Source: a virus
Length of the DNA stretch: 64,000 bases
Virus record (IMG/VR): IMGVR_UViG_3300037297_000388
Coordinates: 2,177 to 66,176 of that record
Reading direction: 5' to 3' (one strand)
Shown: in pieces, positions 3,200-47,549 of the stretch
Position numbering within the stretch: position 1 is the first letter of the stretch
Layout of the letters: each line of letters starts with the position of its first letter
The notes under the pieces: generated by a model
The model's input: only the letters and a program-made list of their open reading frames with translations
Told to the model about the DNA's origin: nothing
Databases searched by the model: none
Program-made: the position numbers and the translations under genes

Positions 3200-3991
3200 A
3201 TGTGTAACCCAGCGAGTTTTATCATCACGCGTGAGCGCGCTCTGTTTTGCGAGACAGACAGCCACGAGGATATTATCAAAAAACACAAACTAGTGGACTC
3301 ACGCATGGAGCCTGCATTTGTGCGAGTGGAGTTGATCCCGCCGGATGGTGACTATTCATCGCCGCCAGAGAAGTGGAAGTTGGAAACAGATCAAGGCGCT
3401 GTGCCAGATTGGTACAACCCAAAATGGGCTCAACAGATGTGCCTACTAGAGATGCCGAAGTGGTGGTCAGGGCGCTTTGCGACTTCGTCTGGAGTGCTTT
3501 ATTACGAGGGTCGCAAAATAAATAAGATACCGAATAATATGACTCATATCGGCGGCTCCCTGGACCTGCGCGGCACGCAGGTGAGCGACCTTGGGCAGCT
3601 GCAGTCCGTCGGCGGCTCCCTGGACCTGCGCGGCACGCAGGTGAGCGACCTTGGGCAGTTGCAGTCCGCCGGCGGCTCCCTGGACCTGCGCGGCACGCAG
3701 GTGAGCGACCTCGGGCAGTTGCAGTCCGTCGGCGGCTCCCTGTACCTGCGCGGCACGCAGGTGAGCGACCTCGGGCAGTTGCAGTCCGTCGGCGGCTCCC
3801 TGGACCTGCGCGGCACGCAGGTGAGCGACCTTGGGCAGCTGCAGTCCGTCGGCGGCTCCCTGGACCTGCGCGGCACGCAGGTGAGCGACCTTGGGCAGTT
3901 GCAGTCCGTCGGCGGCTACTTGTACCTGCGCGGCACGCAGGTGAGCATCGCAGATCTGCCTGAAGGTTTGAAGCCACGGGATGTGTTATAA
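3200..3991 (+). CDS. Leucine-rich repeat protein
   Basis: About 6.6 copies of 20-aa GGSLDLRGTQVSDLGQLQSV (LxLxxTxV LRR pattern). Confidence 0.85.
   Translation: MCNPASFIITRERALFCETDSHEDIIKKHKLVDSRMEPAFVRVELIPPDGDYSSPPEKWKLETDQGAVPDWYNPKWAQQMCLLEMPKWWSGRFATSSGVLYYEGRKINKIPNNMTHIGGSLDLRGTQVSDLGQLQSVGGSLDLRGTQVSDLGQLQSAGGSLDLRGTQVSDLGQLQSVGGSLYLRGTQVSDLGQLQSVGGSLDLRGTQVSDLGQLQSVGGSLDLRGTQVSDLGQLQSVGGYLYLRGTQVSIADLPEGLKPRDVL
3551..3946 (+). repeat. 60-bp coding tandem repeat, 6 full copies plus a partial copy
   Basis: Units start at 3551, 3611, 3671, 3731, 3791, 3851 and 3911. Confidence 0.97.
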
Positions 3992-4117: not shown

Positions 4118-4190
4118 GGGGCACGCCACCCCACCAGGGCAGTTGAACTCTGCCTGGTCCATTCATCATCAACCCATATCGGCGTGCCCC
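4118..4190 (+). ncRNA. Candidate structured RNA or leader hairpin
   Basis: Perfect 10-bp stem GGGGCACGCC/GGCGTGCCCC enclosing CCAGGGCAG/CTGCCTGG hairpin; TTGACT at 4077 upstream. Confidence 0.35.
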
Positions 4191-4463
4191 GCACATTTAT
4201 TCCACAACAGTTCATAACAGTATAAAATAAAAGGGTAATTACCTTTCGCGTTTACCGGAGTCTGATGAGTGCGGAGATCATTACCTAAACCGAACAGGAG
4301 GAGGGGGGAAGGGTCTTTTTGTTTCGTTTTTCGGTATGGCACGCTTCTTTCAGTGAGTGAACACTAGGAAACAGGAAGGCTCAGAAATATCCAGGTAGAC
4401 CATTTAATTGATAGAAAATGGTTGACGTGGATAGTGTTGCCTGATTAACTGGACAAGCGTGCA

Positions 4464-4724
4464 GTGAACGAAGAGGATTTGATGATGCCTGATGCAAAAA
4501 CAACCCAAGATGATGGACATTGGATGACGGCTGATGAAGTTGCTGAATACCTTCGACTTCCGAGCAGACGAGCCGTTTACCAGGCCACCAGGCGCGGGGC
4601 GATTCCGTATGTCAAGTTGGGGCGTCTGACGCGTTTCCGAAAAAAAGACATCGATGCAGTTCTTCTTGCCCACCAGCAGAATCCGATTGATCCGAATGTC
4701 GGAGATCTTGTATCCGATCTCTGA
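4464..4724 (+). CDS. xis: Excisionase-like helix-turn-helix protein
   Basis: WMTADEVAEYLRLPSRRAVYQATRRGAIPYVKLGRLTRFRKKDID; directly upstream of the integrase. Confidence 0.88.
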   Translation: MNEEDLMMPDAKTTQDDGHWMTADEVAEYLRLPSRRAVYQATRRGAIPYVKLGRLTRFRKKDIDAVLLAHQQNPIDPNVGDLVSDL

Positions 4725-4759
4725 CGCCTACTTCCTGGAGCAGAAAGGAGGTTGGTGAA

Positions 4760-5878
4760 TTGGGCGTCAAAAAATATACGGCGAGGGACGGAAAAGCATG
4801 GTGGATGGCTGACATCCGTGTGACCATGAGAGATGGTCGCGAGAAGCGGGTCAGGAAGAAGAAGATACCGACGAAAGAGATGGCCCTCCTGTACGAGTCC
4901 AAGGTGAAGACGGCAGCATTTGAGGGGCGCTACTTTGAGACGGGAAGCAATTTGACGGTCGAACAGGTCTGGAAAATCTACGAGCCCATCACGCGGCGTG
5001 ATAACGATTCATGGCGGGACGATGTCGGACGGGCCAAGCATTTGACCCGGTTGCTGGGGAAGCGGAAGGTCGAGCAGCTCGCGCTGACACATGTTGAGCA
5101 GTACCGCAGCAGGCGGATGGATGAAGTGAGCAACCGGACGAAGCGGGTGCCGGCGATCGGGACCATCAACCGGGAGGTTGGGCTTTTGAAGCGCATGATC
5201 AACTATGCGGTTCGGCGCGGTGATCTACGGATGAATCCCATCGCGCTAGTCAGGGCGCTCCACGAGTCCAATATCCGGCAGGTTGTGATCAGCGAGCGAA
5301 GGTTCGAAGTGCTGCTCGAGAAGGCGGACCCACCATTGCGCCCGATCATCCTGTTGGCGTATGACTGCGGGATGCGGAAGATGGAGATTCTGATGTTGAG
5401 GTGGAGTCAGCTGAACCTTCACACCGGTGTGGCCTATCTCGCCCCATGGGACACGAAGACGGATGAGTCTCGGGAGATCTATTTGACGGACAGGGCCATC
5501 CGGGAGCTCCAAGCGCTGAAGGGCATCGATGATGGGTTGTTGTCAATCAACGGCTACGCCATCATCAATCCGCAGACGGGCGAGCCCTGGGTGGACATCA
5601 AGAAGATGTTCAAGCGGGCGTGTGAGGCAGCTGGGCTCGTTTACGGCAGGGACAATGGGGTGATCTTCCATGACCTACGTCGGAGCTTTGTTACCAACGC
5701 GAGGAAGAGGGGAATCCCGGAATCGGTGGTGATGGCGATGTCTGGGCACCGGACGCGGAATGTGTTTGACCGCTACAATATCGTGGACAACGCGGATCTG
5801 AAAAACGCCGTCAGGCGGATGGAGCGGGCGCGGCGGGAAGAACTCCGGGAGCAAAAAAGGAGGCGGCCGGAGGTGTGA
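4760..5878 (+). CDS. int: Tyrosine integrase
   Basis: CGMRKMEI (catalytic Arg), KT, FHDLRRSF (HxxR), SGHRTRNVFDRY (H/Y); AAGGAGG RBS. Confidence 0.95.
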   Translation: MGVKKYTARDGKAWWMADIRVTMRDGREKRVRKKKIPTKEMALLYESKVKTAAFEGRYFETGSNLTVEQVWKIYEPITRRDNDSWRDDVGRAKHLTRLLGKRKVEQLALTHVEQYRSRRMDEVSNRTKRVPAIGTINREVGLLKRMINYAVRRGDLRMNPIALVRALHESNIRQVVISERRFEVLLEKADPPLRPIILLAYDCGMRKMEILMLRWSQLNLHTGVAYLAPWDTKTDESREIYLTDRAIRELQALKGIDDGLLSINGYAIINPQTGEPWVDIKKMFKRACEAAGLVYGRDNGVIFHDLRRSFVTNARKRGIPESVVMAMSGHRTRNVFDRYNIVDNADLKNAVRRMERARREELREQKRRRPEV

Positions 5879-5916
5879 GGCAAGTGGGTTCTGCGGTCAA
5901 AGAAAAGCCGAAAAAA

Positions 5917-5940
5917 TTGGACACATTTTGGACACATTTT
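5917..5940 (+). repeat. Candidate integrase arm-type sites (left)
   Basis: TTGGACACATTTTGGACACATTTT direct repeat; the same motif recurs at 6169-6192. Confidence 0.7.
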
Positions 5941-6004
5941 CTAAAAACTACATCAGAATACAATGTACTACATCAGTTAAAGTGTTGAAATTGTTTAAGA
6001 ATTA

Positions 6005-6048
6005 GGCACGCCCGACAGGACTCGAACCTGTGACCCACGGCTTAGAAG
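6005..6048 (-). other. 3' half of tRNA-Arg(UCU); probable attP core
   Basis: Minus strand reads CTTCTAAGCCGTGGGTCACAGGTTCGAGTCCTGTCGGGCGTGCC (anticodon loop, T-arm, acceptor 3' strand); the 5' half is missing; 127 bp downstream of int. Confidence 0.88.
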
Positions 6049-6168
6049 AACTTAAAAATCGTTTCAGGAAGTAGGCGTAATCTTTAATATTTGTCAATCA
6101 TGACGGTCTATTGGACGGATGGTCGAGTGTCCGTGAGTCAACGGGAATCAACATGAATCCACACTGTT

Positions 6169-6192
6169 TTGGACACTTTTTGGACACTTTTT
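6169..6192 (+). repeat. Candidate integrase arm-type sites (right)
   Basis: TTGGACACTTTTTGGACACTTTTT direct repeat. Confidence 0.7.
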
Positions 6193-6196
6193 TATA

Positions 6197-6289
6197 AGCT
6201 GCTCACCACCGCGGCGCCGAGGATAGCAGCTGCTCACCACCGCGGCGCCGAGGATAGCAGCCGCTCATCTCCGCGGCGCAGAGTTATGG
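6197..6289 (+). repeat. 31-bp tandem repeat (2 perfect copies plus 1 degenerate)
   Basis: AGCTGCTCACCACCGCGGCGCCGAGGATAGC at 6197 and 6228; degenerate copy at 6259. Confidence 0.9.
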
Positions 6290-6361
6290 GAAGAACAAAC
6301 CCGCCAAGGGGTAGATATAAATAAAAAAACCTGCCAAAGAAATAAAAAACAAAAAATAAGA

Positions 6362-6390
6362 TTGACAAGGAGAAAATAAAGATAAAAAAT
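6362..6390 (+). promoter_or_regulatory. Sigma70-like promoter upstream of the DUF5131-csf gene run
   Basis: TTGACA-17-AAAAAT in an A-rich tract; the TTGACAAGGA motif is shared with 21559 and 39881. Confidence 0.55.
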
Positions 6391-6420
6391 ACCCAAGAAG
6401 ATGATGAATGGAGGTAAATA

Positions 6421-6600
6421 ATGGACTTCGCAGACATTGGACATTGGAATTTTGATGAGGATGCCAGGGATCAACTCATGAGACTCCTGAGGAAGGACCT
6501 GGCAGGGATGGTTGGCGTTGGCGCGATCAGCCAAGATGATGCTGACAACTGGCTAAATCTCCCATCGGATTTTGATGATCTTTTCGGCGTTGAGGAGTAA
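6421..6600 (+). CDS. Small acidic protein (59 aa; not in ORF track)
   Basis: GGAGGT RBS; MDFADIGHWNFDEDARDQ...DFDDLFGVEE; 15 D/E versus 4 K/R; stop overlaps the next ATG. Confidence 0.7.
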   Translation: MDFADIGHWNFDEDARDQLMRLLRKDLAGMVGVGAISQDDADNWLNLPSDFDDLFGVEE

Positions 6601-7505
6601 TGCAACGGACAAAGATAGAATACCTAACCCACACCTGGAACCCGCTGGCTATGCGGTGTTCTCCGGTGTCGGATGGGTGTAAGAATTGCTGGCACCTTAG
6701 AATGGCGAATCGGATGGCAGGAAACTTTATATTGAAACCAGAAGCTCGACGAGCATATGCCGGTAATGGGCCATGGCTGAACACCGAGGAACTCTCAGCA
6801 CCATTCAAGCTGAAGAAGCCCTCCGTCATTGGCGTCCAGTTTATGGGGGATCTTTTTCACATGTCGGTTTCAGATGAGCAGATTGCAGCCGCCTATGGGG
6901 CGATGATGGCATGCCCACAGCACACTTTCATCATTTTGACGAAGCGGGCCGAAAGGATGTTCCATTGGTATCGCAACACGCAAAACATAGGCGGTTATCC
7001 GGTTGGTGATCCTCATCCTGAAGCGTTGAATTGCGCCTGGCAGCTGCTTCAATTGGCTGAACCAGAAGGAGACGGGCCGATCCATTGTAAATACGGACCT
7101 GCCCCTGATGCACCGTGGCCGCCCCGTAACGTAATCCCCGGCGTCAGCGTCGAGGATCAGAGAACCGCCGAAGAGCGATGGCGTTGGCTGTCGCGATGCC
7201 CGGCGGATGTTAGATGTGTATCGGTAGAGCCGATGCTCGGGCCGGTCGACCTATGCAATCAATGGGGACTCTATGAATTAGACGGTGGCGGCTATTCTAC
7301 AAAGGTATCTAGCCGATGGGATCGGTCACCTGACTGGGTCATCTGCGGCGCAGAAACGGGACCAAGAAAACGGCCATTTAAGAACGAATGGGCGCTTGAC
7401 TTGCGCGATCAATGCCGGGCAGCTGGCGTGCCGTTCTTTTTCAAACAGGATGGTGATGGCAACAAAACACTCTGCGGTGTCGAGTACCACGAGTGGCCGA
7501 AATAA
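6600..7505 (+). CDS. DUF5131 / phage Gp37-Gp68 family protein
   Basis: TKIEYLTHTWNP, CSPVSDGCKNCW (CxxxxxxCxxC), MGDLFH, ILTKRAER, GVSVEDQ, VSVEPMLGP, WVICGAETG, VPFFFKQ. Confidence 0.9.
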   Translation: MQRTKIEYLTHTWNPLAMRCSPVSDGCKNCWHLRMANRMAGNFILKPEARRAYAGNGPWLNTEELSAPFKLKKPSVIGVQFMGDLFHMSVSDEQIAAAYGAMMACPQHTFIILTKRAERMFHWYRNTQNIGGYPVGDPHPEALNCAWQLLQLAEPEGDGPIHCKYGPAPDAPWPPRNVIPGVSVEDQRTAEERWRWLSRCPADVRCVSVEPMLGPVDLCNQWGLYELDGGGYSTKVSSRWDRSPDWVICGAETGPRKRPFKNEWALDLRDQCRAAGVPFFFKQDGDGNKTLCGVEYHEWPK

Positions 7506-7519
7506 ACACACAGGAGGTA

Positions 7520-8031
<512 letters not shown>

Positions 8032-8060
8032 GAAAAGTCCGCCCGGAAGATGCGAGGAAT

Positions 8061-8206
8061 ACGTCGCCCAGGGGCACTGGGAGACGGAAAACGGACGTGG
8101 AGAGGGCGTCAGCCTGGGGTGTTGTCCCCAGCAATCCTCTGTGAAGCGTCAAGGCGGCTGCCATGCCTGTTGAACAGACAGACATCGGTTTAAGTCCGCT
8201 CTGCCA
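8061..8206 (+). mobile_element. tnpB-derived omegaRNA-like scaffold, copy 2
   Basis: 146-bp near-identity to 646-791. Confidence 0.75.
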
Positions 8207-8225
8207 GCCAAAGGCGTAATCAATC

Positions 8226-8645
8226 ATGGATATGAAACAGAAGCGCATGCGTCAAATCAACAAGCTGATCAGCGTGATTGCTTCATGTGGGAGAAAATTC
8301 TACTCCTACAATGGCACGGTCGCAGAATTCAAAATCTGGGGGAATGGTAGGCTTTATTTCGTCGAGCCATATGGGCGGAATTTACTGCCGTGTTACTCGA
8401 AGCCGGACAGCCATAGATGGAATACCCACCGGTGGGGTAGATTTGGCGGCGGCGGGACGCTCAAGGCCATGACAAAGTCCTTCGCTGCATACATTCTCAC
8501 CGGTGCTACGGTGCCAGCCCATCATTTTGGTCCATGGCCGGAGTGGTATTGTGGCAACCCAAATGATCTATGGGGGTACGGAGACGAAGCCATGGAGAAG
8601 GTCCGTTCTGCGGCGGTTTTGGTATCAACAGCGAGGCAAGGATGA
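8226..8645 (+). CDS. Hypothetical protein
   Basis: 139-aa ORF whose stop overlaps the csf2 start (ATGA). Confidence 0.65.
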   Translation: MDMKQKRMRQINKLISVIASCGRKFYSYNGTVAEFKIWGNGRLYFVEPYGRNLLPCYSKPDSHRWNTHRWGRFGGGGTLKAMTKSFAAYILTGATVPAHHFGPWPEWYCGNPNDLWGYGDEAMEKVRSAAVLVSTARQG

Positions 8646-9865
8646 GTAACGAAACGTTGATAAAGACGGTTACCGTAATCCGTCAAATCTATTTCAATTC
8701 GAGCATGAAAACAAGGCGCAAATATGCTGACTTCTTCACTGACCGGTTGAAGGCCGCATGCACTGAGCCGTCGTTGCTGGCCGCGGTAAACCGCCTGGGT
8801 GAGTCCGTCGACTGTTCTTTTGGATCATTGGATTCAACCACGGTGTCGGAGTTCATTCGTTGCGCAGGGGGCATCTCTTCCGCCGGCGTATTCGACTGGG
8901 TTCGGCAGTATCCGGCTATAATCACATCTCTATGTCTCCTGAAGAAGGACGATCTGGCCGAGACTGTCGCAACCATTGACATCTCCGAATCAAGAAGGTC
9001 AGGAACAGCGGTGAAGGCCCCAGCGGCGGAGATAGCCATAAACGTGAAGTGCCTTTCTCCCCTCGCCCACGGTGCTGATACCAAGTCTGGCAACTGTACT
9101 CTATTTCGTCGGATGCATGTGCTGAGCACTACCGGAGACACCCTATCTCTACCATTCTATGCTGGAAACGCAGTTCGTGGGCAAATGCGCGATTTGCTCG
9201 CCGATGATTTTATCCGGCGACTGGGGATGAGGCCAAGGCGTGACAATCCCCCTGTCTCTTTATGGTTCTTCCATGCGCTTTATGCCGGTGGTGCCCTTGA
9301 GGAGAACAGCGCGGCGGAGAAGGGACTGGGGAAGATCCTTGGGAAGAATGGCGCAGCTCGAGCGGAGGGATTCTATCAGGTTCGGAACACCCTTCCGCCG
9401 CTGTCTCTATTCGGTGCAGCCCTCGGGCGCCGGATTTTGAATGGTAGGTTTCAGTGTCACGATCTCCGCCCGGTATGTTATGAATGGGGCAACGGAGATG
9501 TACCGGTGGCGGATCTGTTTGAGTGGACATTTCTGACACGACGCGAAGATCATGAGGCTCACGATGACAATTCCAGCATGATCGCGAATACCGAAGTAAT
9601 GAAGGCCGGAGTAGATCTCACGGGCGGATTCAATATCGAATCCAACGCGACAGAGATTGAGCGCTCTGCATTGGGGCACGGGCTCGATCTTCTTGCAGCC
9701 AGGGGGATGCTCGGCGCCGAGAATCGACGAGGACTTGGCGCCGTAGAAATATCGGCGGAGAATGTCCCATCGCCGGTTACCTATCTTGATTTTATGGAGC
9801 AATCAAAGGCCGACATCCTGGCGTTTTTGTTGGAGATCGGGGCCATCAACGCTGAGGAAGCTTGA
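8642..9865 (+). CDS. csf2: Type IV Cas7 (Csf2) with N-terminal Cas11-like helical domain
   Basis: CLSPLAHGADTKSGNCTLFRR, LPFYAGNAVRGQMRDLLA, LYAGGAL, PPLSLFG, FLTRRED and Gly-rich GMLGAENRRGLG loop are Csf2-like; ~110-aa helical N-terminal extension. Confidence 0.9.
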   Translation: MSNETLIKTVTVIRQIYFNSSMKTRRKYADFFTDRLKAACTEPSLLAAVNRLGESVDCSFGSLDSTTVSEFIRCAGGISSAGVFDWVRQYPAIITSLCLLKKDDLAETVATIDISESRRSGTAVKAPAAEIAINVKCLSPLAHGADTKSGNCTLFRRMHVLSTTGDTLSLPFYAGNAVRGQMRDLLADDFIRRLGMRPRRDNPPVSLWFFHALYAGGALEENSAAEKGLGKILGKNGAARAEGFYQVRNTLPPLSLFGAALGRRILNGRFQCHDLRPVCYEWGNGDVPVADLFEWTFLTRREDHEAHDDNSSMIANTEVMKAGVDLTGGFNIESNATEIERSALGHGLDLLAARGMLGAENRRGLGAVEISAENVPSPVTYLDFMEQSKADILAFLLEIGAINAEEA

Positions 9866-10521
9866 TGCATCCGATTCAGTTGATAGCCCCGTGTATATCA
9901 GAAGAGGACTCGGGGTGCGATTTTGAGACGGTGGAGCATGTTTGCGCGGTCACTGGAGCGCGCGCCCCGTGTGTCCCTCGAAAGGCCCTTCTGAAGAAGG
10001 GATTCACCAACGAAGCGATTCTGAAGGCACCATTATCAGATTGGGTTTCGGTGGATGCCTATCGGGTACTTCGATTTCGTCCAGAGCGGTCCTGGTCATG
10101 GATCTGTGATGGAACGGATCTTGTCTTGCTCGACCGGATCGGCGTCAGGGAGATTGTGATTGAAGAGAAGTACCCTGCAGTCTGGTCTGGGTATGTGACG
10201 ACGAGCTACAAGAAGCACGGATCACTATGGGCTCGCGTCAACGCAAACGGAGTCCGGTTCTGGCGTTTCGAAGCTCTCGATGTTGACTGCTCCGACCATG
10301 GCTACCTAATGAGGGTATGGGAGCGGCTGAACGAGGAACTGAGACGCGGGTTCAGCCGGCCGACATTGGAGTCCCTTGCCTGTCCGCCTTTTTTTCTAAA
10401 AAAGGTGGGTGTGGACAAATGGCTTGAGCTCGAGCGGTGGGCTCGACCGATTGCCGCGTCTCCGCTCTATCGCTTTCTGTGCTATCTGCTTCCAAGTCAG
10501 AAGGAACTGGCCGATGAATGA
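9865..10521 (+). CDS. csf1: Type IV Csf1 (Cas8-like)
   Basis: CAVTG...KKGFTNEAILKAPLSDWVSVDAY...RSWSWIC resembles the Csf1 N-terminal pattern; coupled to csf2. Confidence 0.72.
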   Translation: MHPIQLIAPCISEEDSGCDFETVEHVCAVTGARAPCVPRKALLKKGFTNEAILKAPLSDWVSVDAYRVLRFRPERSWSWICDGTDLVLLDRIGVREIVIEEKYPAVWSGYVTTSYKKHGSLWARVNANGVRFWRFEALDVDCSDHGYLMRVWERLNEELRRGFSRPTLESLACPPFFLKKVGVDKWLELERWARPIAASPLYRFLCYLLPSQKELADE

Positions 10522-11263
10522 TACCCATATTCTCGGATGGCGGGTTCACGCAAAGACGAGAGCGTTCAAGCAGAAGGTTCGTGAGTCGATAGAAATTACT
10601 ACTGAGGCGCTTTTTGATTCCGATGTTAGGTTTTGCATCATGTGGAGCGGTGGGAAAGACTCTACGGCGATGACGCACATCGTGAAGTCGCTCCTTCCGA
10701 CCTGCCCTATTGTTTCCCAGTTTGATGACTGTGACTGGCCAGAGAAGTCGCCCTACATGGAAAGGGTGGCTGCAGAGCAGGGGTGGACCATCCATCGTGT
10801 GGAACCAGAATTTAGCGTGTGGGAAAGGACCAAGATGTTTCAGATTGGCGACGAGGACCTCTGTAAGAAATCCCACCCATTAACGAGGGAGGCCTTCCTC
10901 GATGTGCTCCATGAGGAACAGGAGAAACTTGGCTGCAGTGGTGCCTTTATTGGTCTACGCTCTCAGGAAAGCCCTGGCCGCCGAAAAAACTTCCAGGCGC
11001 GTGGGCACATATACCAGCTCAACAACGGAAAATGGCACTGTTGCCCGCTGAGCAGCTGGACATCACAGGACGTCTTCGCCTATCTTTCTGCTGTGGATAT
11101 TGAAATAAACCCATGCTATTTTAAAAACGCCATATGGGAACCGGAGGAGATCCGCCTTTCATGGGCATTGCCAACAATTTGGTGGAAGGGTCAGGATATT
11201 GAACATTTACGACGTTACTATCCAGAACAATTTCGCAGACTAAGAGAAAGGGGAACACAATGA
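10514..11263 (+). CDS. cysH: CysH-like PAPS-reductase-family protein (type IV-B associated)
   Basis: WSGGKDSTAM PP-loop, FIGLRSQESPGR, CPLSSWTSQDVFAY. Confidence 0.88.
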   Translation: MNDTHILGWRVHAKTRAFKQKVRESIEITTEALFDSDVRFCIMWSGGKDSTAMTHIVKSLLPTCPIVSQFDDCDWPEKSPYMERVAAEQGWTIHRVEPEFSVWERTKMFQIGDEDLCKKSHPLTREAFLDVLHEEQEKLGCSGAFIGLRSQESPGRRKNFQARGHIYQLNNGKWHCCPLSSWTSQDVFAYLSAVDIEINPCYFKNAIWEPEEIRLSWALPTIWWKGQDIEHLRRYYPEQFRRLRERGTQ

Positions 11264-11841
11264 GTAACACCGTGAGCAACACAGTATTGATTGGGGAGCT
11301 TACTTTGGAGCGCGCAAAAATGGTACTACAGGGAAAGAAGGCTGATATTGTCTACTCAGACCCACCCTGGGGACCTGGTAATCTCCGCTACTGGAGGACG
11401 ATGAACAATGAAGGAAATGAAGTCAACTGGAAAAAATTTCTTCATTTATTCTGCCAGGTGGTGAAGGATAGCACAAATCCGACATCGGAGATTTTCGTTG
11501 AGATGGGGACCCGCTGGATCGACGAGTTGGCGGCTGAGATGGCGTCCGTCGGTATTCAGGAGACGCAGCGGTTTGAGTGTTCATATCGGGGGGGCGCGAA
11601 GAGGTATCGAAACTTTCTATGGCACGCGGGGACACATATAGTACCAACTGAACTCAATGGTGGGGTGAAGATGACGATGGGGATTCTTTCCGCCGTTGCG
11701 AAAGATGGTGCCATCGTTTTTGATCCATGCTGTGGCAAGGGAATGAGCGCAAAATGCGCAATTAAAAACAATATGAAATTTGTAGGAATTGAACTAAATG
11801 CCAAACGCGCGGCGATGACGCAGAAAATATTAACCAAATGA
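11260..11841 (+). CDS. Small N6A/N4C-type methyltransferase
   Basis: YSDPPW (motif IV) followed by VFDPCCGKG (motif I) and GIELN. Confidence 0.8.
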   Translation: MSNTVSNTVLIGELTLERAKMVLQGKKADIVYSDPPWGPGNLRYWRTMNNEGNEVNWKKFLHLFCQVVKDSTNPTSEIFVEMGTRWIDELAAEMASVGIQETQRFECSYRGGAKRYRNFLWHAGTHIVPTELNGGVKMTMGILSAVAKDGAIVFDPCCGKGMSAKCAIKNNMKFVGIELNAKRAAMTQKILTK

Positions 11842-12167
11842 GGCTTGAGGAGGTAGTTCGGGAGGCCAGAAAAGAATATCAATCAAGTTTGAAGCCCAAA
11901 ACTGCGCCGACTCCAATATATTACAGTGGAAAGATTGTTGGAGTTTATCATCCTCACAGTTGTAAATATGGGCGTCGAATTGGGCCAATTTTTGTGCTTC
12001 CAGAATACCGCGGACGCGGGATTGCCCTTGGTATATATAACAGTATCAGCGGAGAACTTGTTGCATGTGTAAGAGACGATAATATTGCTGGTATCCGACT
12101 TCATGAGGCGGCTGGGTTTATACGGTTCCGTCGATATCAATACGGATGGTGGATGGTTAGAAAATGA
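11838..12167 (+). CDS. GNAT-family acetyltransferase
   Basis: IFVLPEYRGRGIA acetyl-CoA motif; NIAGIRLHEAAGF. Confidence 0.8.
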   Translation: MRLEEVVREARKEYQSSLKPKTAPTPIYYSGKIVGVYHPHSCKYGRRIGPIFVLPEYRGRGIALGIYNSISGELVACVRDDNIAGIRLHEAAGFIRFRRYQYGWWMVRK

Positions 12168-13024
12168 TTTTCCTTGGCGTTTCAATTGAAGAGAAAATTG
12201 ACGGTGTTAGAAGATACTGCACAAGACACAAAATAAAAAAAACGTTTATGATTTCTCCAGAGAAGTTCGTTTTTCAACCAGATGATGCCGAAACAATAGA
12301 ATACAGTGACGCCATAAAATACAAATACTACTACCGCCTCCTGCAAGAGATTGACCACAACACTCTGATTGTAATCAACGAGTGTCTCCGCACCCAAAAT
12401 AGATACGACCTGACATACAACTGCATCCGCAATTACCTGAATCAAACACATCACCAGATCATCTTTCAAAACCTTCCACTCATCGATACTTTTAATGACT
12501 TCATGATCCTATTTGATTTCGACACGAGGAGCCGCTGGAAACGTGAATCGTTCCGACGTGAGTTGCTGGCTGAGTGCAAAATAGTAAACCGAATCCGACC
12601 GATCACAATTTCACCGATAATAACCAAGGCGAACACTCAGACGCATGCGATCTATCAGAAGAAAAAAAGGAAACTCATTGATGAAATAGGGCTGAAGGAT
12701 CCCCATACTATACCGCGTAACCTCTATCTAATCGGTGGGAAAACCCGCCAGAGGTTGGTCCGCGCCGACGTGAACTATGTTGGGAGGAATAACCGGTTGA
12801 AGATTCCGACGTTGAAAACCTATCGAGAGAAGTTATTTCCACCGGATAACACTGTCTTTGAACTTCCCCATAATTTCATAGACTTCTCTGATTTTATAAC
12901 GCTGTCTGGCCAGGTCGACTTCGAAGTACTGGTGACAGACCTCAAGGTGGATCAGTGGTATCTGGATAGGTACCAAAAGTGGGCAGAGAGGATTGAAAAT
13001 GCTCGTTCAGTCCTACAGCAATAA
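12164..13024 (+). CDS. Hypothetical protein, possibly a degenerate SF2/RecA-like fold
   Basis: TLIVINEC resembles a degenerate Walker B; no Walker A seen; coupled on both sides. Confidence 0.6.
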   Translation: MIFLGVSIEEKIDGVRRYCTRHKIKKTFMISPEKFVFQPDDAETIEYSDAIKYKYYYRLLQEIDHNTLIVINECLRTQNRYDLTYNCIRNYLNQTHHQIIFQNLPLIDTFNDFMILFDFDTRSRWKRESFRRELLAECKIVNRIRPITISPIITKANTQTHAIYQKKKRKLIDEIGLKDPHTIPRNLYLIGGKTRQRLVRADVNYVGRNNRLKIPTLKTYREKLFPPDNTVFELPHNFIDFSDFITLSGQVDFEVLVTDLKVDQWYLDRYQKWAERIENARSVLQQ

Positions 13025-14126
13025 GACCGTCCTTGATGCCGCCCGGGAGCGGATGGCTTTCATCTTTGATGAATTCGAGACCATCATCGTGTCCATCAGC
13101 GGTGGAAAAGACTCAACAGTGTTGGCTTATCTGGCCCTCCATGAGGCGTCCTCGAGGGGGAGAAAAGTTGGGCTTTATTTTCTAGACGAAGAGGTGGTGT
13201 ACCAGAGCACAGTTGATCAGGTCGACTACCTGATGGACCTCTTTCCGGACACCGTGACGAAGATCTGGTTTCAGATTGAGTGTTGCCTCACGAACTCCAC
13301 GTCTGTGTCTGAGGGACAGCTCATCTGTTGGGAGGCAGGCAAGCACGAGATCTGGATGCGTCACAAAAAGCCGTTCGCCATTCAGCACCGAATGTGGCCA
13401 GCGGAAGAACAGACGGTTCGCGACAAAAACAAAGGGTTTGGGTTCTACGATGTCATCGACAACTTCGAGCGGTGCTACCACAGCGCCGCATTTTTGGTAG
13501 GGCTGAGGGCCGCGGGGGAGTCCCCAAACAGGTGGCGCGCAGTGGTCAAGAACCCCGTTCTGATCGGCGGGAAGAAGGTATATTGGGGCACGAAGAAGGG
13601 CAACAACGTGGCCCTTTATCCACTGTATGACTGGAATTTCCATGATGTCTGGAAGTATATCCATGACGCCGGCATCCGGTACTCGAAGATCTATGATATG
13701 CAGTTCAAGAAGGGCTATCCAATCACCCAAATGAGGGTGTCCTCGCTGATCCATGAACGGGCTTTCAAGAGCATCTGTGATCTTCCAGAGTTTGAGCCGA
13801 AGACCTTTGACCAACTGAGCAAACGCATCAAGGGCATCTCACTTGCTCAGGAAACTGGAAAGAACGCAAAGCTGTTTGCATGCAGAAAGCTCCCAAAGAA
13901 TTTCAAGTCATGGATCACCTACCGTGATTTTCTCATTTCCACCCATCAGGATCAGGAGAGACTTTCGATATTTCAAAAACGCTTCAGGAAGCACCTAAAC
14001 AACGAATATGTGGCGAGGCAGCAATGCCGGCAGCTTATTTTAAACGATTATGAAAACAACCTCCCCGTGGACAATAAACCAGACCCACGGGAAGATCTCA
14101 TCAAATACTACGACGAGGTTTTGTGA
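12999..14126 (+). CDS. ibrA: IbrA/YbdN-like PAPS-reductase-family protein (DUF3440-type C-terminus)
   Basis: TVLDAARERMAFIFDEF, SISGGKDSTVL, FLDEE, VGLRAAGESPNR, YPLYDWNFHDVWKY, MRVSSLIHE. Confidence 0.85.
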   Translation: MLVQSYSNKTVLDAARERMAFIFDEFETIIVSISGGKDSTVLAYLALHEASSRGRKVGLYFLDEEVVYQSTVDQVDYLMDLFPDTVTKIWFQIECCLTNSTSVSEGQLICWEAGKHEIWMRHKKPFAIQHRMWPAEEQTVRDKNKGFGFYDVIDNFERCYHSAAFLVGLRAAGESPNRWRAVVKNPVLIGGKKVYWGTKKGNNVALYPLYDWNFHDVWKYIHDAGIRYSKIYDMQFKKGYPITQMRVSSLIHERAFKSICDLPEFEPKTFDQLSKRIKGISLAQETGKNAKLFACRKLPKNFKSWITYRDFLISTHQDQERLSIFQKRFRKHLNNEYVARQQCRQLILNDYENNLPVDNKPDPREDLIKYYDEVL

Positions 14127-14728
14127 TGGTACATCGCGTCGACACAATAGAGCAGTTTCTCGAGATTAGAGACAAGTTGGAGCACGTCTACATCAACTCG
14201 AAGACGCGAGGTAAAGTACTCGTCCCGTGTTGCAACACGATTCTGGCCTCGACAAAACTCATCATAGAAAATCAGTATAACCCAAACCACGTACCAGCCG
14301 AGAAGATGGCGCTATTGAGTCAGTCGATTCTCGACAACGGATTTTGTTTCCCAGTGGTGGTGATCTACGATGATGAGTCCGAGCTCTTTGTCGTGATAGA
14401 TGGCTTTCATCGGACGATTATCGGCGGGGATGGCTGGTTGGAGTTCGACTACATCCCGCTGGTGGTACTTGACCATGACATCAAGAAGAGAATGGCGGCA
14501 ACGGTGCAGTTCAATAAGGCCCGCGGTGTTCACCAAGTAGATCTTGATGCGGATGTCATCCGGGCGCTCATCGAACAAGGGATGTCCGAGGATGAAATCT
14601 GCGCCCACCTTGGGATCGATGAGGATACGGTCCATCGATACAAGCAGCTCACCGGGATTGCTGAGCTCTTCAAGAACGCGGACTATTCCATGAGCTGGGA
14701 GATGAAGGATGTGAAGGATGGCTCTTAG
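14126..14728 (+). CDS. ibrB: IbrB/YbdM-like ParB/Srx-domain protein
   Basis: NQYNPNHV, SILDNGFCFPVV, VIDGFHR, ATVQFNKARGVH, C-terminal HTH. Confidence 0.88.
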   Translation: MVHRVDTIEQFLEIRDKLEHVYINSKTRGKVLVPCCNTILASTKLIIENQYNPNHVPAEKMALLSQSILDNGFCFPVVVIYDDESELFVVIDGFHRTIIGGDGWLEFDYIPLVVLDHDIKKRMAATVQFNKARGVHQVDLDADVIRALIEQGMSEDEICAHLGIDEDTVHRYKQLTGIAELFKNADYSMSWEMKDVKDGS

Positions 14729-15380
14729 ACCACTTAAAATAACTTTCCACATGGATGGCACTGGTGCCTTCTACGACCCGTCCGAACCAATGCACCTGGA
14801 TGGACTATTGGCGTGGGCGTTGTGTTTATACCAGACGTCAGGGGAGCCACCGGCGGCCGATGAAAAGCCGTTTGAACCACGGCTGCCACTCGGAAAATGG
14901 CATATTGGGGGCCAATGGGGCTGGACCGCCAGCGCCATCCTACCGGTGGGGGATAAACAGTGGGGGATGCAGCGCTTCATCAAGCGTTTTCGTGAGAATC
15001 GAATTGAGATCACAAAGGGATCACCGAATATGCAGATGAGCACCTATCGGAAATACTGTGTACCGATGCCGCTGGTGCTTTCTCATCAATTTGTAGCCTA
15101 TGCCCTGGGCCCAAGGGGCCGCGTTCACCAGATCCTGAAGAAAAACATCAAATTTCTCGGCAGAAAACGGGCCGCTGGCAAAGGTCGGATCGTGGACATT
15201 ACCACCGAAGAGATAGCCGATGATTTCTCACTTGTGAAGGATGGCCGAGCGAATCGGTATCTTCCAAAAGATGGAGCTCAGAGGCAAGTCAGAACACGCC
15301 CGCCCTACTGGAATATGTGGGGGCGCGTTCCTTGCTGTGAGGTGGGAGAGGCGTATCAACTGGATACAATTAATGGTTGA
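14718..15380 (+). CDS. csf3: Type IV Cas5 (Csf3)
   Basis: PLKITF, HLDGLLAWA, LPL..W...WGWTAS, FLGRKRAAGKGRI Gly loop, RPPYW. Confidence 0.88.
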   Translation: MALRPLKITFHMDGTGAFYDPSEPMHLDGLLAWALCLYQTSGEPPAADEKPFEPRLPLGKWHIGGQWGWTASAILPVGDKQWGMQRFIKRFRENRIEITKGSPNMQMSTYRKYCVPMPLVLSHQFVAYALGPRGRVHQILKKNIKFLGRKRAAGKGRIVDITTEEIADDFSLVKDGRANRYLPKDGAQRQVRTRPPYWNMWGRVPCCEVGEAYQLDTING

Positions 15381-15401
15381 GGGCGTCGGCGTGGATATGG
15401 C

Positions 15402-15435
15402 CATCACCATGGCCGCGATGATCGCGATGGTGGTG
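15402..15435. terminator. Hairpin between convergent transcription units
   Basis: CATCACCAT/ATGGTGGTG and CGCGAT/ATCGCG stems; no clear U-tract. Confidence 0.4.
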
Positions 15436-15439
15436 AGGT

Positions 15440-15850
15440 TCATTTACCCCTTGAAATTAAATTTTCAAGGTGGGCGTTGCCAGCCCAGAACTCGGAGACG
15501 ACGAGGTCGATCGAGAATGCGATGTGCTCTGATGTCGAGACCTGCTTGGCGAGCTCGAGCCATCGGTCTTGGGTGATGTCCCATTTCTCGGCGTACTCTG
15601 GCCCGTCCGCCATTGAGGCGCCGTGCCAGGTGGGGGACTGGACGAGCAGCCACGAGCCGTTCAGGACATCGCAGGCGGCCAATATCTCATTGGGTGTCCA
15701 CCCGGCCGCCTGCAGGGTAGACAGGGACTGGGTGGCCCGCTGGAACCTTTCACGGACTGCATGCTCGATGTAGTCGGAGATGTTGCCGACGCGATCGAGC
15801 AGATTTATGACATCAGGGGCGAGGGTAAGTTGTTTTTTGATTTTCTTCAT
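15440..15850 (-). CDS. Hypothetical protein with possible N-terminal ribbon-helix-helix
   Basis: KKQLTLAPDVINLLDRVGNISDYIEHAV; AAAGGAGA RBS. Confidence 0.6.
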   Translation of the reverse strand: MKKIKKQLTLAPDVINLLDRVGNISDYIEHAVRERFQRATQSLSTLQAAGWTPNEILAACDVLNGSWLLVQSPTWHGASMADGPEYAEKWDITQDRWLELAKQVSTSEHIAFSIDLVVSEFWAGNAHLENLISRGK

Positions 15851-15866
15851 AGTTCTCCTTTGCGCA

Positions 15867-16079
15867 TCAGCGGTTTAATTGATCCGCGTGCTCTTGCGCC
15901 TCACGATGGGACGCGAATGAACCGGACACATTTTTATAAGAATCATAAATTCCTTCATATTCTTCTTCGACGCCCCAATGCCTGGGGGCATCCATAACCA
16001 CGGCCCACCATGCGATTGGTTTTTCTAATGGAAGTTCATCCATCATTCTGTCTATTTCCGTGAAGATATCCATTTTCAT
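15867..16079 (-). CDS. Small acidic hypothetical protein
   Basis: 70 aa, preceded by the repeated ACAACAAAGGAGA cassette. Confidence 0.65.
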   Translation of the reverse strand: MKMDIFTEIDRMMDELPLEKPIAWWAVVMDAPRHWGVEEEYEGIYDSYKNVSGSFASHREAQEHADQLNR

Positions 16080-16082
16080 TTC

Positions 16083-16148
16083 TCCTTTGTTGTGGCCGAT
16101 TGGCCGATGGGGTCAATCAGGTTGATGAGCCCGTTGGGGGTCAATCAG
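16083..16148 (-). repeat. Intergenic cassette repeat (two GATTGACCCC units plus GGCCAATCGGCCACAACAAAGGAGA)
   Basis: Matches 19311-19348, 21046-21105 and partly 21414-21434. Confidence 0.85.
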
Positions 16149-16237
16149 GTTATGGTTTAGTTTAATTTCCCGCAAAATACCTCGCCCTCTTGGGCTAGAT
16201 AAGCCTTTTTCTCTCCCCTGGCATCTCTCCGCCAGAA

Positions 16238-16615
16238 TTACCCGACAAAATCACCGTTACCCGCATTATACGGAGGCTCTTCTGACTGCGAGTCAATGAG
16301 GTCCCAATGCAATTTGCAATGTTGCTTCTCCGAGAAAAACTGCCACGGAATCCCGTGGCGGCGACCGATAACGACCACAGACCGGTCCAATATGGAGTTT
16401 CTGATTTCGAGGAGGTTTCCACCGCTGGTCACCCATCGAAACGTTGTGCCCTCATGATTCTCTGAGTACCCGCACGGATAGGACCGACCGTCATACGCCA
16501 CTATCCTGGACGCACCACACGGGGTACCGTAATAGGATTCGTGCTCTTCGATCATTGTTTCACGAATTCTATCGACTGAGACTGAACAACTGCCAAATTC
16601 TGCTCTGGCTATCAT
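16238..16615 (-). CDS. Hypothetical protein
   Basis: GGAGG RBS before ATG at 16615. Confidence 0.55.
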   Translation of the reverse strand: MIARAEFGSCSVSVDRIRETMIEEHESYYGTPCGASRIVAYDGRSYPCGYSENHEGTTFRWVTSGGNLLEIRNSILDRSVVVIGRRHGIPWQFFSEKQHCKLHWDLIDSQSEEPPYNAGNGDFVG

Positions 16616-16629
16616 CTTGTCCTCCTTTG

Positions 16630-16851
16630 TTATTCCGAAACCATTGCCCAGGCGAAGTATTTTTTCCAGGCGGCGTCCCTTACGGACGCCCATTCTTTGT
16701 TATTTTTGGGGGTCTCCCCGAGTCCGAGCCCGCTGATGAGTATCCGGCCACGAGCTCGTCTCAGGAAATGCTGATGCCGGGACAGATTTCTAGGGTGGTT
16801 GTCTGCGATCGGCGCTCCATTCGCACCGATCTCTGTTTTCTCTATGTTCAC
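16630..16851 (-). pseudogene. Internally deleted, truncated copy of the 17647-18456 gene
   Basis: VNIEKTEIGA joined directly to NGAPIADNHP...GLGLGET; 41 codons absent; unrelated C-terminus. Confidence 0.75.
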
Positions 16852-17381
16852 GGGTGCACCTCCCACGCGCGGACGATCCACGCGAGGTACTTCTCTAGGG
16901 CCTTTTCCTCCTCCTCCGCCGCCCACGCCGCCCACGCCGCCGCTCTCGCCGCCGCCGCCGCCGCCTCCTCCGCCGCCTCCTCCGCCACCCACGCTGCCGC
17001 CGCCTCCGCCGCCAGCCAGGCCGCCGTGCTCGTCGCCCTCGCCGCCCACGTCGCCCTCGCCGCCCTCGCCGCCCACGCCGCCGCCTTACGGCTGTCGGTG
17101 TTACCGGTCATGAGATACCAGTAACAGGTATCTGGGCAGTCCCATTTGTTGGCAACATCAAGAGCGATCAATCGGGAAACGCGATTCGCAGTATGCGGAG
17201 ATGTCCTGTAAAGCAACCGCGATAGAATCCACAATCGGTCATTGATCGGGATGTCTAAATCGGCAATCTCTTGAGATGTGACCTGTTCTCGACCGGCCGC
17301 CAATTCGGTTAATCGCTCAAGCGGATAATTATTTTCGCAGGGCTCTTCTGTGAGTATGTCTTCCATTGTATATGTTTTCAT
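16848..17381 (-). CDS. Ala/Trp-repeat phage protein, paralog A
   Basis: MKTYTMEDIL...AAWAARAARA...WIVRAWEVHP. Confidence 0.8.
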   Translation of the reverse strand: MKTYTMEDILTEEPCENNYPLERLTELAAGREQVTSQEIADLDIPINDRLWILSRLLYRTSPHTANRVSRLIALDVANKWDCPDTCYWYLMTGNTDSRKAAAWAARAARATWAARATSTAAWLAAEAAAAWVAEEAAEEAAAAAARAAAWAAWAAEEEEKALEKYLAWIVRAWEVHP

Positions 17382-18456: not shown

Positions 18457-18953
18457 GGGTGCACCTCCCACGCGCGGACGATCCACGCGAGGTACTTCTC
18501 AAGTGCTGCCTCCTCCGCCATCGCCTCCGCCGCCCTCGCCGCCGCCCACGCCGCCGCCTCCGCCGCCCACCACGCCTCCGCCGCCCTCGCCGCCGCCCAC
18601 GCCGCCTCCGCCTCCCACCTCGCCTCCACCGCCTCCACCGTATCCACCGTATCCACCGCCCTCGCCTTGGTGTCATCGGTCATGAGATACCAGTAGCAGA
18701 CATCGGGGCAGTTCCATCTATCAACGACATCGAGAGCGATCAATCGGGAAATGCGATTTGCGGTATGTGGAGAGGTCCGGTAGAGCAATCGAGACAAAAT
18801 ACAGATCTTGTCGTTGATCGGGATGTCGAGATCAGCGATTTCTCGCGGAGTGATTTGATCACGACCGGCCGCTAATTCGACTAAACGATCGATCGGGTAA
18901 TTATCTTCGCAGGGTCCTTCTGCGAGAATATCTTCCATCGTGTATGTTTTCAT
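18453..18953 (-). CDS. Ala/Trp-repeat phage protein, paralog B
   Basis: Same N- and C-termini as 16848-17381. Confidence 0.8.
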   Translation of the reverse strand: MKTYTMEDILAEGPCEDNYPIDRLVELAAGRDQITPREIADLDIPINDKICILSRLLYRTSPHTANRISRLIALDVVDRWNCPDVCYWYLMTDDTKARAVDTVDTVEAVEARWEAEAAWAAARAAEAWWAAEAAAWAAARAAEAMAEEAALEKYLAWIVRAWEVHP

Positions 18954-46676: not shown

Positions 46677-47549
46677 TTGGCATCTTGGCAAATAATCCTC
46701 GGCGACGCAGTCGAGATGATGCGAGAACTTCCGGCTGAGTCTGTCGATTGCTGCGTCACAAGCCCGCCGTACTGGAGGCTCCGCGATTATGGAGTCGACG
46801 GGCAGATTGGACAAGAGGAGACATTGTTCGAGTATCTCGACAAACTGATTCTCGTTTTCCAGGAGGTACGCCGAATTCTGAAGAAGGATGGAACGCTTTG
46901 GTTGAACATGGGGGACGGGTACGTGTCGGTTGCATGGGGGGGCGGTGGCGGTAACGGTGATGCAATTGGCCAAAAGACAAAATCAGCGAGAATCAATGCC
47001 GGAAAAAGGCCGAATAAGTGTGGTATATTGAAACCGAAAGATCTCATCGGTATGCCATGGAGGTTGGCATTAGCGCTACAGGATGATGGTTGGTATCTCA
47101 GGCAGGATATAATCTGGGAGAAGCCAGCGCCGATGCCGGAATCAGTCCATGATCGCTGCACGAAATCCCACGAATATATTTTCTTGTTGTCGAAGAGTCG
47201 TCGATACTATTTCGACGCAGATGCAATCAAGGAGAAGGCCTTGGTCGAATATCGAAATGCCCGATCCGTCTGGCGTATCCCGTCTCAACCGAGATCTGAA
47301 AATCATTGGGCAGCTTTTCCTGATGAGTTCGCTCGCCGCTGCATCGTGGCAGGATGCCCACCAGGTGGTGTGGTGCTGGATCCTTTCGTCGGCCGCGGTA
47401 CAACGGCCATAGTTGCTTTACGATGTAGCCGTTCGGCTATCGGCATTGAATTGAGCCCTGAGTCCCATAAACTTGCCAGAGAAAACATTCTGGCGGATGC
47501 ATCATTGCTGAATCTCACGGTCTTCAGTGAGGCCAAAAATGGCATTTGA
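46677..47549 (+). CDS. N6A/N4C DNA methyltransferase (beta class)
   Basis: CCVTSPPYW, WLNMGD, IIWEKP.PMPES..DR, HWAAFP, VLDPFVGRGTT, GIEL. Confidence 0.92.
   Translation: MASWQIILGDAVEMMRELPAESVDCCVTSPPYWRLRDYGVDGQIGQEETLFEYLDKLILVFQEVRRILKKDGTLWLNMGDGYVSVAWGGGGGNGDAIGQKTKSARINAGKRPNKCGILKPKDLIGMPWRLALALQDDGWYLRQDIIWEKPAPMPESVHDRCTKSHEYIFLLSKSRRYYFDADAIKEKALVEYRNARSVWRIPSQPRSENHWAAFPDEFARRCIVAGCPPGGVVLDPFVGRGTTAIVALRCSRSAIGIELSPESHKLARENILADASLLNLTVFSEAKNGI

Follow-up and report, generated by a model that had tools for sequence, protein, structure and literature searches.

A conserved module of a predicted SNF2-like protein, IbrA/IbrB-type enzymes and a DNA methyltransferase in a type IV-B csf operon of a provirus

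To our knowledge, type IV-B is the sole CRISPR-Cas subtype of no known function, and its cysH-like gene has so far provided the only clue. We analysed a type IV-B operon in a 66-kb IMG/VR provirus (record IMGVR_UViG_3300037297_000388), of which a stretch of 64 kb, hereafter called the window, was available. Between cysH and csf3, this operon harbours genes for a small DNA methyltransferase, a short GNAT acyltransferase, a 286-residue protein hereafter called X, and proteins related to IbrA and IbrB of Escherichia coli (Table 1). The published links of type IV-B are restricted to cysH-like genes and, in occasional cases, ADP-ribosyltransferases (bioRxiv 10.1101/270033, 10.1101/780106; PMC8175902; PMC10848311), and our literature search found no publication joining it with ParB or IbrAB.

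Described subtype IV-B loci, such as that of the Mycobacterium sp. JS623 Csf complex (PMC7937560, PMC8175902), have in common with the window's operon Csf2, Csf3, a probable Csf1 and a CysH-like protein devoid of the reductase cysteine, the lack of an array and of Cas6, DinG or nuclease genes, and a location on mobile elements. In contrast to them, the operon described here has a putative Cas11 fused to Cas7, the gene order csf2-csf1-cysH-...-csf3 and five extra enzyme genes, and its sister loci swap cysH for IbrAB of the YbdN/YbdM type or for a radical-SAM enzyme. Its assignment to the subtype is based on the type IV family matches of Csf2 and Csf3, on the cysH-like neighbour and on the absence of an array, of Cas6 and of a helicase or nuclease effector in the operon. 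We detected no CRISPR array in the 64-kb window, which harbours only tandem repeats without spacers, and scans of the operon proteins with the Pfam, NCBIfam and PADLOC libraries yielded no Cas6, DinG or nuclease match.

The five extra genes also have described relatives. IbrA and IbrB of E. coli, called YbdN and YbdM in strain K-12, were reportedly first described as regulators of eib gene expression and named after that regulatory phenotype. They likewise form a unit of two overlapping genes coding for a protein with PP-loop and DUF3440 domains and a ParB/Srx protein with a helix-turn-helix (HTH) domain, but the window's pair belongs to a separate, well-supported subfamily, which always has X upstream and is accompanied by a small DNA methyltransferase. 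The DndBCDE and SspABCD systems similarly combine a PAPS-reductase-family enzyme (DndC/SspD-like), a ParB-family protein (DndB-like) and a DNA-binding partner of ATPase fold, whereas the window's locus lacks the conserved cysteine dyad, the desulfurase, DndD/E and SspB/C. Finally, ParB-like ATPases, methyltransferases and SNF2 helicases are found together on mobile elements in Dpd, DISARM/BREX and ParB-methyltransferase fusions (PMC12839542, PMC5512222). The window's locus differs from these systems in having neither TGT/DpdA, PglZ nor DrmA/B, in the PP-loop nature of its central enzyme and in the absence of canonical ATPase motifs in X.

Searches with X gathered 30 IMG/VR loci and 6 genome loci, whose genes we mapped by iterated local profiles. 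The genes for X, IbrA and IbrB are contiguous and in this order wherever the contig allows, and a gene for a small methyltransferase with a DPPW motif is found directly 5' of X or 3' of IbrB in most loci. The IbrA proteins are 61-78% identical to that of the window. X, IbrA, IbrB and the methyltransferase constitute a conserved mobile module, present in 36 loci besides the window; the GNAT gene was found in ~11 of the module loci. Two nearly identical phages, L040 and L044, encode a second, divergent IbrA-IbrB pair, 44% and 41% identical to the window's, directly 3' of a methyltransferase-GNAT-X-IbrA-IbrB unit (5637-7303 in L040 and 10436-12102 in L044 for the second pair). In L001, genes for two LAGLIDADG homing endonucleases and an RRXRR (HNH-type) protein are present upstream of a module devoid of both csf and SNF2 genes (5128-9363).

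In 12 of the 30 viral loci the module has csf genes beside it, and a 13th has a Cas7 gene ~10 kb away. The Cas7 proteins of these loci are only 18-28% identical to that of the window, and several type IV-B lineages are therefore involved. Seven loci (L017, L023, L024, L025, L026, L031 and L043) have the module flanked by the csf genes on one side and cysH on the other. In the window and L019 it is flanked by cysH and csf3, in L037 it follows cysH, and in L020 it is convergent with csf. Of the members of the Cas11-Cas7 clade to which the window belongs, only the window and L023 harbour the module. These two loci have unlike gene orders and their IbrA proteins belong to different subclades, which indicates two separate acquisitions, as judged from sequence relationships. 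In L006, the closest relative with cysH only, cysH directly adjoins csf3, and positions 11260-14728 thus correspond exactly to the extra DNA. The initial annotation had proposed, as one possibility, that a modification-type cassette was recruited into the type IV locus, and recruitment is borne out by the presence of the module alone in complete phages and by its various gene orders in or beside divergent type IV-B loci.

In the 13 relatives of the window's Cas7, we also surveyed the slot that lies between csf1 and csf3 or immediately follows csf3. It is occupied by a short CysH-like gene in L004/L005, L006, L007, L014 and L015, and by a small open reading frame (ORF) followed by an IbrA/IbrB pair in L003, L008, L009, L011 and L012. 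The latter pairs closely resemble YbdN (46% identity, E 1e-129) and YbdM (57% identity, 5e-67) of E. coli, and we saw no short CysH in these five loci, although the L008 contig stops just past csf3. Two IbrAB lineages have thus joined the window's Cas clade, one of them replacing cysH. In L013, the csf1-csf3 slot codes for neither CysH nor IbrAB but for a 448-residue radical-SAM protein (4182-5528). A protein of 95-125 residues, with 21 invariant columns in the five sequences, precedes every YbdN-type IbrA in the sister slots; it gave no Pfam match and has no GNAT motif. A scan for related loci with Csf3 found no relatives.

Among the csf-less module loci, 13 harbour upstream of X a gene for a highly conserved SNF2 helicase of ~475 residues (>750 bits in most loci), the search for which was seeded with the helicase upstream of X in L002. 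This helicase comes with a partner of ~286 residues, and the two are fused in L038. In the 28 scorable loci, including the window, we found csf genes only in 12 cases, the SNF2 helicase only in 13, both in one (L041) and neither in two, an alternation with a Fisher p of 7e-5, uncorrected for relatedness.

X itself appears to be related to SNF2 enzymes. It gave no match to Pfam, NCBIfam, PADLOC or PHROGs, to GenBank phages by tblastn or to PDB sequences, and matches in the ESM Atlas were under useful scores, the Atlas's own model being poor. We collected 746 homologues, with 51-65% identity among the 120 matches listed, and an alignment of 26 sequences has 56 invariant columns. The AlphaFold2 model of X has a predicted local distance difference test score (pLDDT) of 90.3 and a predicted TM score of 0.86. 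Its best structural match is CSB (7oob_b; VIA Z 18.0, root-mean-square deviation 3.4, 276 of 286 residues aligned), followed by Ino80, SNF2h, CHD4, Chd1, Rad54 and the Zorya ZorD helicase. Nearly all of the top 25 VIA matches are SNF2-family enzymes, and Foldseek retrieved ISWI/Chd1 (E 1e-8). The model thus has the two RecA-like lobes of the SNF2 type, and the gene left without assignment in the initial annotation is predicted to code for an SNF2-like protein. A comparison of X with the module's SNF2 helicase using hhalign was not significant (E 0.24); in that alignment NECL is placed over DESS (motif II) and FQNLP over TGTP (motif III), as the fold predicts. The catalytic motifs of X are atypical. 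Its N-terminus, M-I-x-L-G-x5-K, represents a degenerate Walker A motif without GxGKT or GKT, and motif II reads N-E-C-L in place of D-E-x-H, with N72 nearly invariant and E73 invariant. In the motif VI-like sequence GRNNR, R208 and R211 are invariant. Based on the model, X is probably a minimal SNF2-derived DNA-binding protein that has lost its ATPase activity.

The operon encodes two distinct PP-loop enzymes, as initially annotated, with the SGGKDS motif present in both the CysH-like and the IbrA-like protein. The latter matches PAPS_reduct (PF01507, 1.5e-10) followed by DUF3440 (PF11922, 25.6 bits for a cut-off of 25), the domain order of IbrA/YbdN, and shares 25% identity with YbdN of E. 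coli (E 4e-29). However, the X-linked IbrA proteins form a clade of 34 members (support 98) apart from the clade of YbdN, which also holds the IbrA proteins of L003, L008, L009, L011 and L012. The window's IbrA thus appears from the tree to be a member of a paralogous subfamily rather than an orthologue of YbdN. In 42 IbrA sequences, the PP-loop and many polar residues are at least 95% conserved. IbrB shares 39% identity with YbdM of E. coli (E 2e-36) and has the ParB/Srx and C-terminal HTH organization of that protein, with its gene directly after that of IbrA. Residues D93, G94, H96, R97, N131, A133, R134, G135 and H137 are at least 90% conserved in 35 sequences, and IbrB keeps the ParB-type motifs DGFHR (DGxHR) and NxARGxH. 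The IbrA/IbrB assignment therefore holds at the family level, for a distinct subfamily.

One chemistry suggested at first for this block, sulfur transfer of the Dnd/Ssp type, fares poorly, as does a role of the PP-loop proteins in sulfate assimilation as products of viral 'cysH' auxiliary metabolic genes. Both proteins belong to the PAPS-reductase family, PADLOC gave weak matches to DndC, SspD and BrxP, and PHROGs and surveys of auxiliary metabolic genes label such genes as PAPS reductases, with DUF3440-bearing 'cysH' genes counted among sulfur-metabolism genes in a viral survey (bioRxiv 10.1101/2021.01.05.425418). Nevertheless, no cysteine is conserved at 80% or more in the 42 IbrA sequences. 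The CysH-like protein of the window, a sister of that of L006 (49% identity), has no counterpart of the catalytic ECGLH cysteine of E. coli CysH, nor has any of the 16 other short CysH-like proteins aligned, in line with what has been published on CasCysH (PMC8175902). In the Pfam, NCBIfam and PADLOC scans, the operon proteins included neither a cysteine desulfurase nor a DndD/E- or SspB/C-like protein. Among solved structures, the best match for both PP-loop proteins is CysD, an adenylyl-transferring enzyme (1zun, 1e-4 for the CysH-like protein). Phosphorothioation and sulfate assimilation are unlikely on these grounds, to the point that we consider this explanation highly improbable, and the sulfur-metabolism label of the DUF3440 'cysH' family is doubtful. 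The role that remains for such a protein is most probably that of an ATP pyrophosphatase that adenylates a substrate oxygen.

The other enzymes of the block have recognizable motifs. The methyltransferase harbours the motifs DPPW (residue 34) and VFDPCCGKG (residue 153); motif IV thus precedes motif I (FxGxG), the arrangement of beta-class N6-adenine/N4-cytosine enzymes. DPPW is present in 26 of the 31 module-linked small methyltransferases, and both DPPW and DPCCGKG recur across most of them. Both IbrB and the methyltransferase match phrog_498, a PHROGs family with the annotation DNA methyltransferase, and for this reason the two proteins would fit a split form of a ParB-methyltransferase fusion. 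The GNAT protein is short, without the usual first strand and helix. It keeps the acyl-CoA-binding motif A (RGRGIA) and a conserved P-x-x-R-x-x-G motif, and its AlphaFold2 model (pLDDT 88.8) has the GNAT fold, all Foldseek matches listed being GNATs (best 9dsb_A, 1.5e-5). A full-length N6_N4 DNA methyltransferase (2e-48) is encoded ~30 kb from the block, at 46677-47549.

The genes csf2 to csf3 form a single, tightly packed operon on the + strand (8570-15380; Table 1), with start/stop overlaps of 4 to 26 nt at all junctions. The csf1 start overlaps the csf2 stop by 4 nt, the methyltransferase start and the cysH stop share an ATGA, the IbrA start sits 26 nt within the X gene, IbrB and IbrA overlap by a GTGA, and csf3 overlaps IbrB by 11 nt. 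The ORF of the CysH-like protein opens at a GTG (10409) and that of IbrA at a TTG (12993), with the ATG codons at 10514 and 12999, respectively, being the likely starts. A purine-rich stretch precedes the start at the 3 junctions inspected. Promoter-like and terminator-like matches showed no excess over shuffled sequence, no direct or inverted repeats were found flanking the block, and a survey of 5500-17000 with Rfam gave no family. Within its N-terminal extension, Csf2 has a weak Cas11 match (0.031, residues 44-82), and the 13 relatives of Csf2 in IMG/VR are 43-52% identical to it. Csf1 homologues with 35-50% identity are encoded at the same position in 12 related loci.

Table 1. Genes of the type IV-B operon in the window, and small ORFs of the sister loci.
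Feature	Position	Strand	Evidence
Csf2 (Cas7) with N-terminal extension (Cas11-like fusion), first operon gene	8570..9865	+	PADLOC typeIV_Cas7 PDLC01724 2e-44, residues 155-420
Csf1 (Cas8-like)	9862..10521	+	PADLOC typeIV_Cas8 3.1e-4 (weak); conserved position in relatives
CysH-like PP-loop protein (CasCysH)	10514..11263	+	PAPS_reduct 3.6e-17; SGGKDS
Small beta-class N6-adenine/N4-cytosine DNA methyltransferase, 193 residues	11260..11841	+	N6_N4_Mtase 34.2 bits, cut-off 26.7
Mini-GNAT acyltransferase, 109 residues	11838..12167	+	Acetyltransf_1 6e-5, 23.7 bits, cut-off 20.7
X, predicted compact SNF2-like two-lobe protein, 286 residues	12164..13024	+	Predicted fold; library scans without match
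IbrA-like PP-loop ATP pyrophosphatase (PAPS_reduct + DUF3440)	12999..14126	+	phrog_2302 1.5e-77
IbrB-like ParB/Srx-domain protein, C-terminal HTH	14123..14728	+	phrog_2159 3.2e-43; HTH_23 9e-5
Csf3 (Cas5), last operon gene	14718..15380	+	PADLOC typeIV_Cas5 PDLC01727 6.6e-30
Small protein preceding YbdN-type IbrA in sister loci	L003 4700-5020; L008 11875-12162; L009 3502-3879; L011 11905-12246; L012 2173-2496		

The block had been described as AT-richer than its flanks, which is correct for part of it. The G+C content (GC) is 0.478 for the methyltransferase gene, 0.445 for GNAT and 0.430 for X, as compared with 0.53-0.55 for the csf genes, and the GNAT and X genes together (11838-13024, GC 0.435) make up the lowest-GC kilobase of the window, 0.4% of its 1-kb intervals being as low. 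A compositional discontinuity is thus present, but at third codon positions (GC3) only the GNAT gene is deviant (0.34). The GC3 of X is ordinary (0.52) and its GC at second positions very low (0.30), so that its low GC results from a Lys/Asn/Ile/Tyr-rich amino-acid make-up. The GC3 of the IbrA and IbrB genes (0.67) exceeds that of the csf genes (0.56-0.60). A simple AT-rich foreign island was rejected given the normal GC3 of X; the heterogeneity of GC3 between the block and the csf genes is as expected of a fairly recent mosaic.

Just upstream of the csf operon, after an integrase gene (4760-5878), are genes for a DUF5131 protein (6600-7505; Pfam 4e-59, PADLOC defence candidates PDC-M41B 1e-48 and PDC-M30B 9e-46) and for an HTH_17/MADS mad1-like protein (7493-7792), which overlap. 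They may represent a separate pair of defence candidates or a regulator of the csf operon. Two tandem repeats without spacers, which are not CRISPR arrays, were found at 3490-3969 (60-nt unit, ~8 copies) and, between the integrase and DUF5131 genes, at 6197-6289 (31-nt unit, 3 copies). GC-rich periodic repeats of 9-15 nt occur within leftward genes at 16630-17124 and 18497-18667, where, according to the frame, they code for low-complexity tracts rich in Ala/Trp or in Gly/Pro.

The analysis shows what the genes and folds are, that the module is conserved and recurrently linked to type IV-B, and that thiol chemistry is absent; from this we infer a substrate, a product and a physical cooperation with Csf as follows. 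In the window, the module forms part of a type IV-B operon without an array, with translational coupling to the cysH-like and csf3 genes. It retains its catalytic motifs (SGGKDS, DGFHR, DPPW/FxGxG and GNAT motif A), and the partners of IbrA, namely a ParB/Srx protein, a DNA methyltransferase, the predicted SNF2-like protein and, here, a GNAT, appear from their families to be of DNA-related types. We therefore lean towards an adenylation-based DNA-modification module that is functionally joined to Csf, with either the SNF2 helicase or the Csf complex of type IV-B as its partner. IbrB, of the ParB/Srx NTPase/nickase type, and X would bind DNA and open it or hold it, IbrA would consume ATP in adenylating a base or backbone oxygen, which a nucleophile could then displace, and the methyltransferase and, here, the GNAT would attach methyl or acyl groups. 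The outcome would be covalently marked DNA, with a benefit to the phage or prophage against restriction systems or rival elements. Modules with type IV-B csf genes beside them, L041 aside, lack the helicase, and the Csf ribonucleoprotein together with CasCysH may therefore represent the alternative DNA-engaging partner of the module.

Several observations weigh against this proposal. The alternation of csf with the helicase is structured by clades, with a minimum of 5 changes of csf state and 4 changes of SNF2 state on the IbrA tree, and a phylogeny-aware pair test was not significant, with 2 usable pairs; the alternation is therefore descriptive rather than statistically secured. The window encodes another SNF2-family helicase ~30 kb away from the block (44028-45812; SNF2-rel_dom 6e-16), which is unrelated to the module's helicase (20.9 bits). 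The module is present without csf in complete phage genomes (G006, G018), and thus cooperation with Csf is not obligatory. The block and csf genes are unlike in GC3. X has kept E73 and GRNNR, so that nucleotide binding by X is possible and the loss of its ATPase activity is probable rather than certain. Lastly, the substrate may be DNA, RNA or a small molecule.

The same features bear on other explanations. The module might be a self-sufficient phage cassette, for instance for anti-restriction self-modification, shuffled into the csf operon as cargo without any interplay with Csf or CasCysH. This would account for its presence without csf in complete phages, for the heterogeneous GC3 and for the variable contents of the csf1-csf3 slot in the window's clade. 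We nevertheless find it unlikely, given that the linkage recurs with Cas7 lineages of 18-28% identity and in at least five gene orders, that the module is often sandwiched with csf genes on one side and cysH on the other, that all junctions in the window are translationally coupled and that a second IbrAB lineage occupies the same slot. Furthermore, none of the 12 scored loci with csf genes only has the module's SNF2 helicase, L041 having both.

Other alternatives concern the substrate or the type of action. The PP-loop enzymes, the GNAT and the helicase-like X could modify RNA, either that of the Csf filament or host RNAs. Most characterized PP-loop enzymes of nucleic acids target tRNA, including TilS, TtcA and ThiI, GNATs have a role in ac4C formation, and both PP-loop proteins of the window weakly match NCBIfam TtuA, NcsA, TtcA and TilS. 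Type IV-B Csf complexes moreover bind heterogeneous small RNAs (PMC7937560, PMC8175902). An RNA substrate appears quite improbable all the same: the methyltransferase belongs to the N6_N4 DNA family, IbrB is ParB-like with an HTH domain, X is closest to SNF2-family translocases of double-stranded DNA, the csf-less loci have an SNF2 helicase as partner, and the region surveyed with Rfam contains no known RNA. It is still harder to see the module as a regulatory or nucleotide-based conflict system, which we regard as very unlikely. In such a system IbrB would be an HTH repressor or activator, or an NTPase, and IbrA would make or consume a nucleotide signal, with the control of phage or host genes or the depletion of nucleotides as the outcome rather than marked DNA. 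The regulatory phenotype that is said to have given IbrAB its name would agree with it, as would the C-terminal HTH of IbrB. In E. coli, YbdNM is regulated together with citR (PMC9068703), and NTPase activity is possible for ParB/Srx proteins (PMC5512222, PMC10853773); among the papers listed in our literature search, we saw no microbial study of IbrA/IbrB function. The constant presence of a DNA methyltransferase that is catalytically intact by its motifs and of the SNF2-like protein, together with the SNF2 alternation, argues instead for action on DNA itself. Sulfur chemistry is the least likely of these rivals.

A fold is thus proposed for a family of several hundred formerly unannotated proteins, that of X. 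The cysH position of type IV-B loci is filled or extended by IbrA/IbrB-type enzymes of two separate lineages, and a conserved module of a predicted SNF2-like protein, IbrA, IbrB and a methyltransferase has repeatedly been joined to divergent csf operons, the window combining CysH, the full module and a GNAT inside one of them. These findings speak against two common annotations, as sulfur-metabolism auxiliary genes or as Dnd-like phosphorothioation. The pairing of the module with Csf or with an SNF2 helicase, and with both only once, provides a testable clue to the function of type IV-B. A broader idea, possible if doubtful, is that Csf ribonucleoproteins form the targeting or DNA-opening part of a machine for covalent nucleic-acid modification, with interchangeable catalytic partners, namely cysteine-less PP-loop adenylating enzymes (CasCysH, or IbrA together with IbrB), DNA methyltransferases and, as in one of the sister loci, a radical-SAM enzyme. 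If so, the Csf complex would replace the SNF2 motor of the csf-less version of the module, and type IV-B would be a system by which phages and plasmids mark DNA, scaffolded and possibly guided by RNA, and not one of interference.

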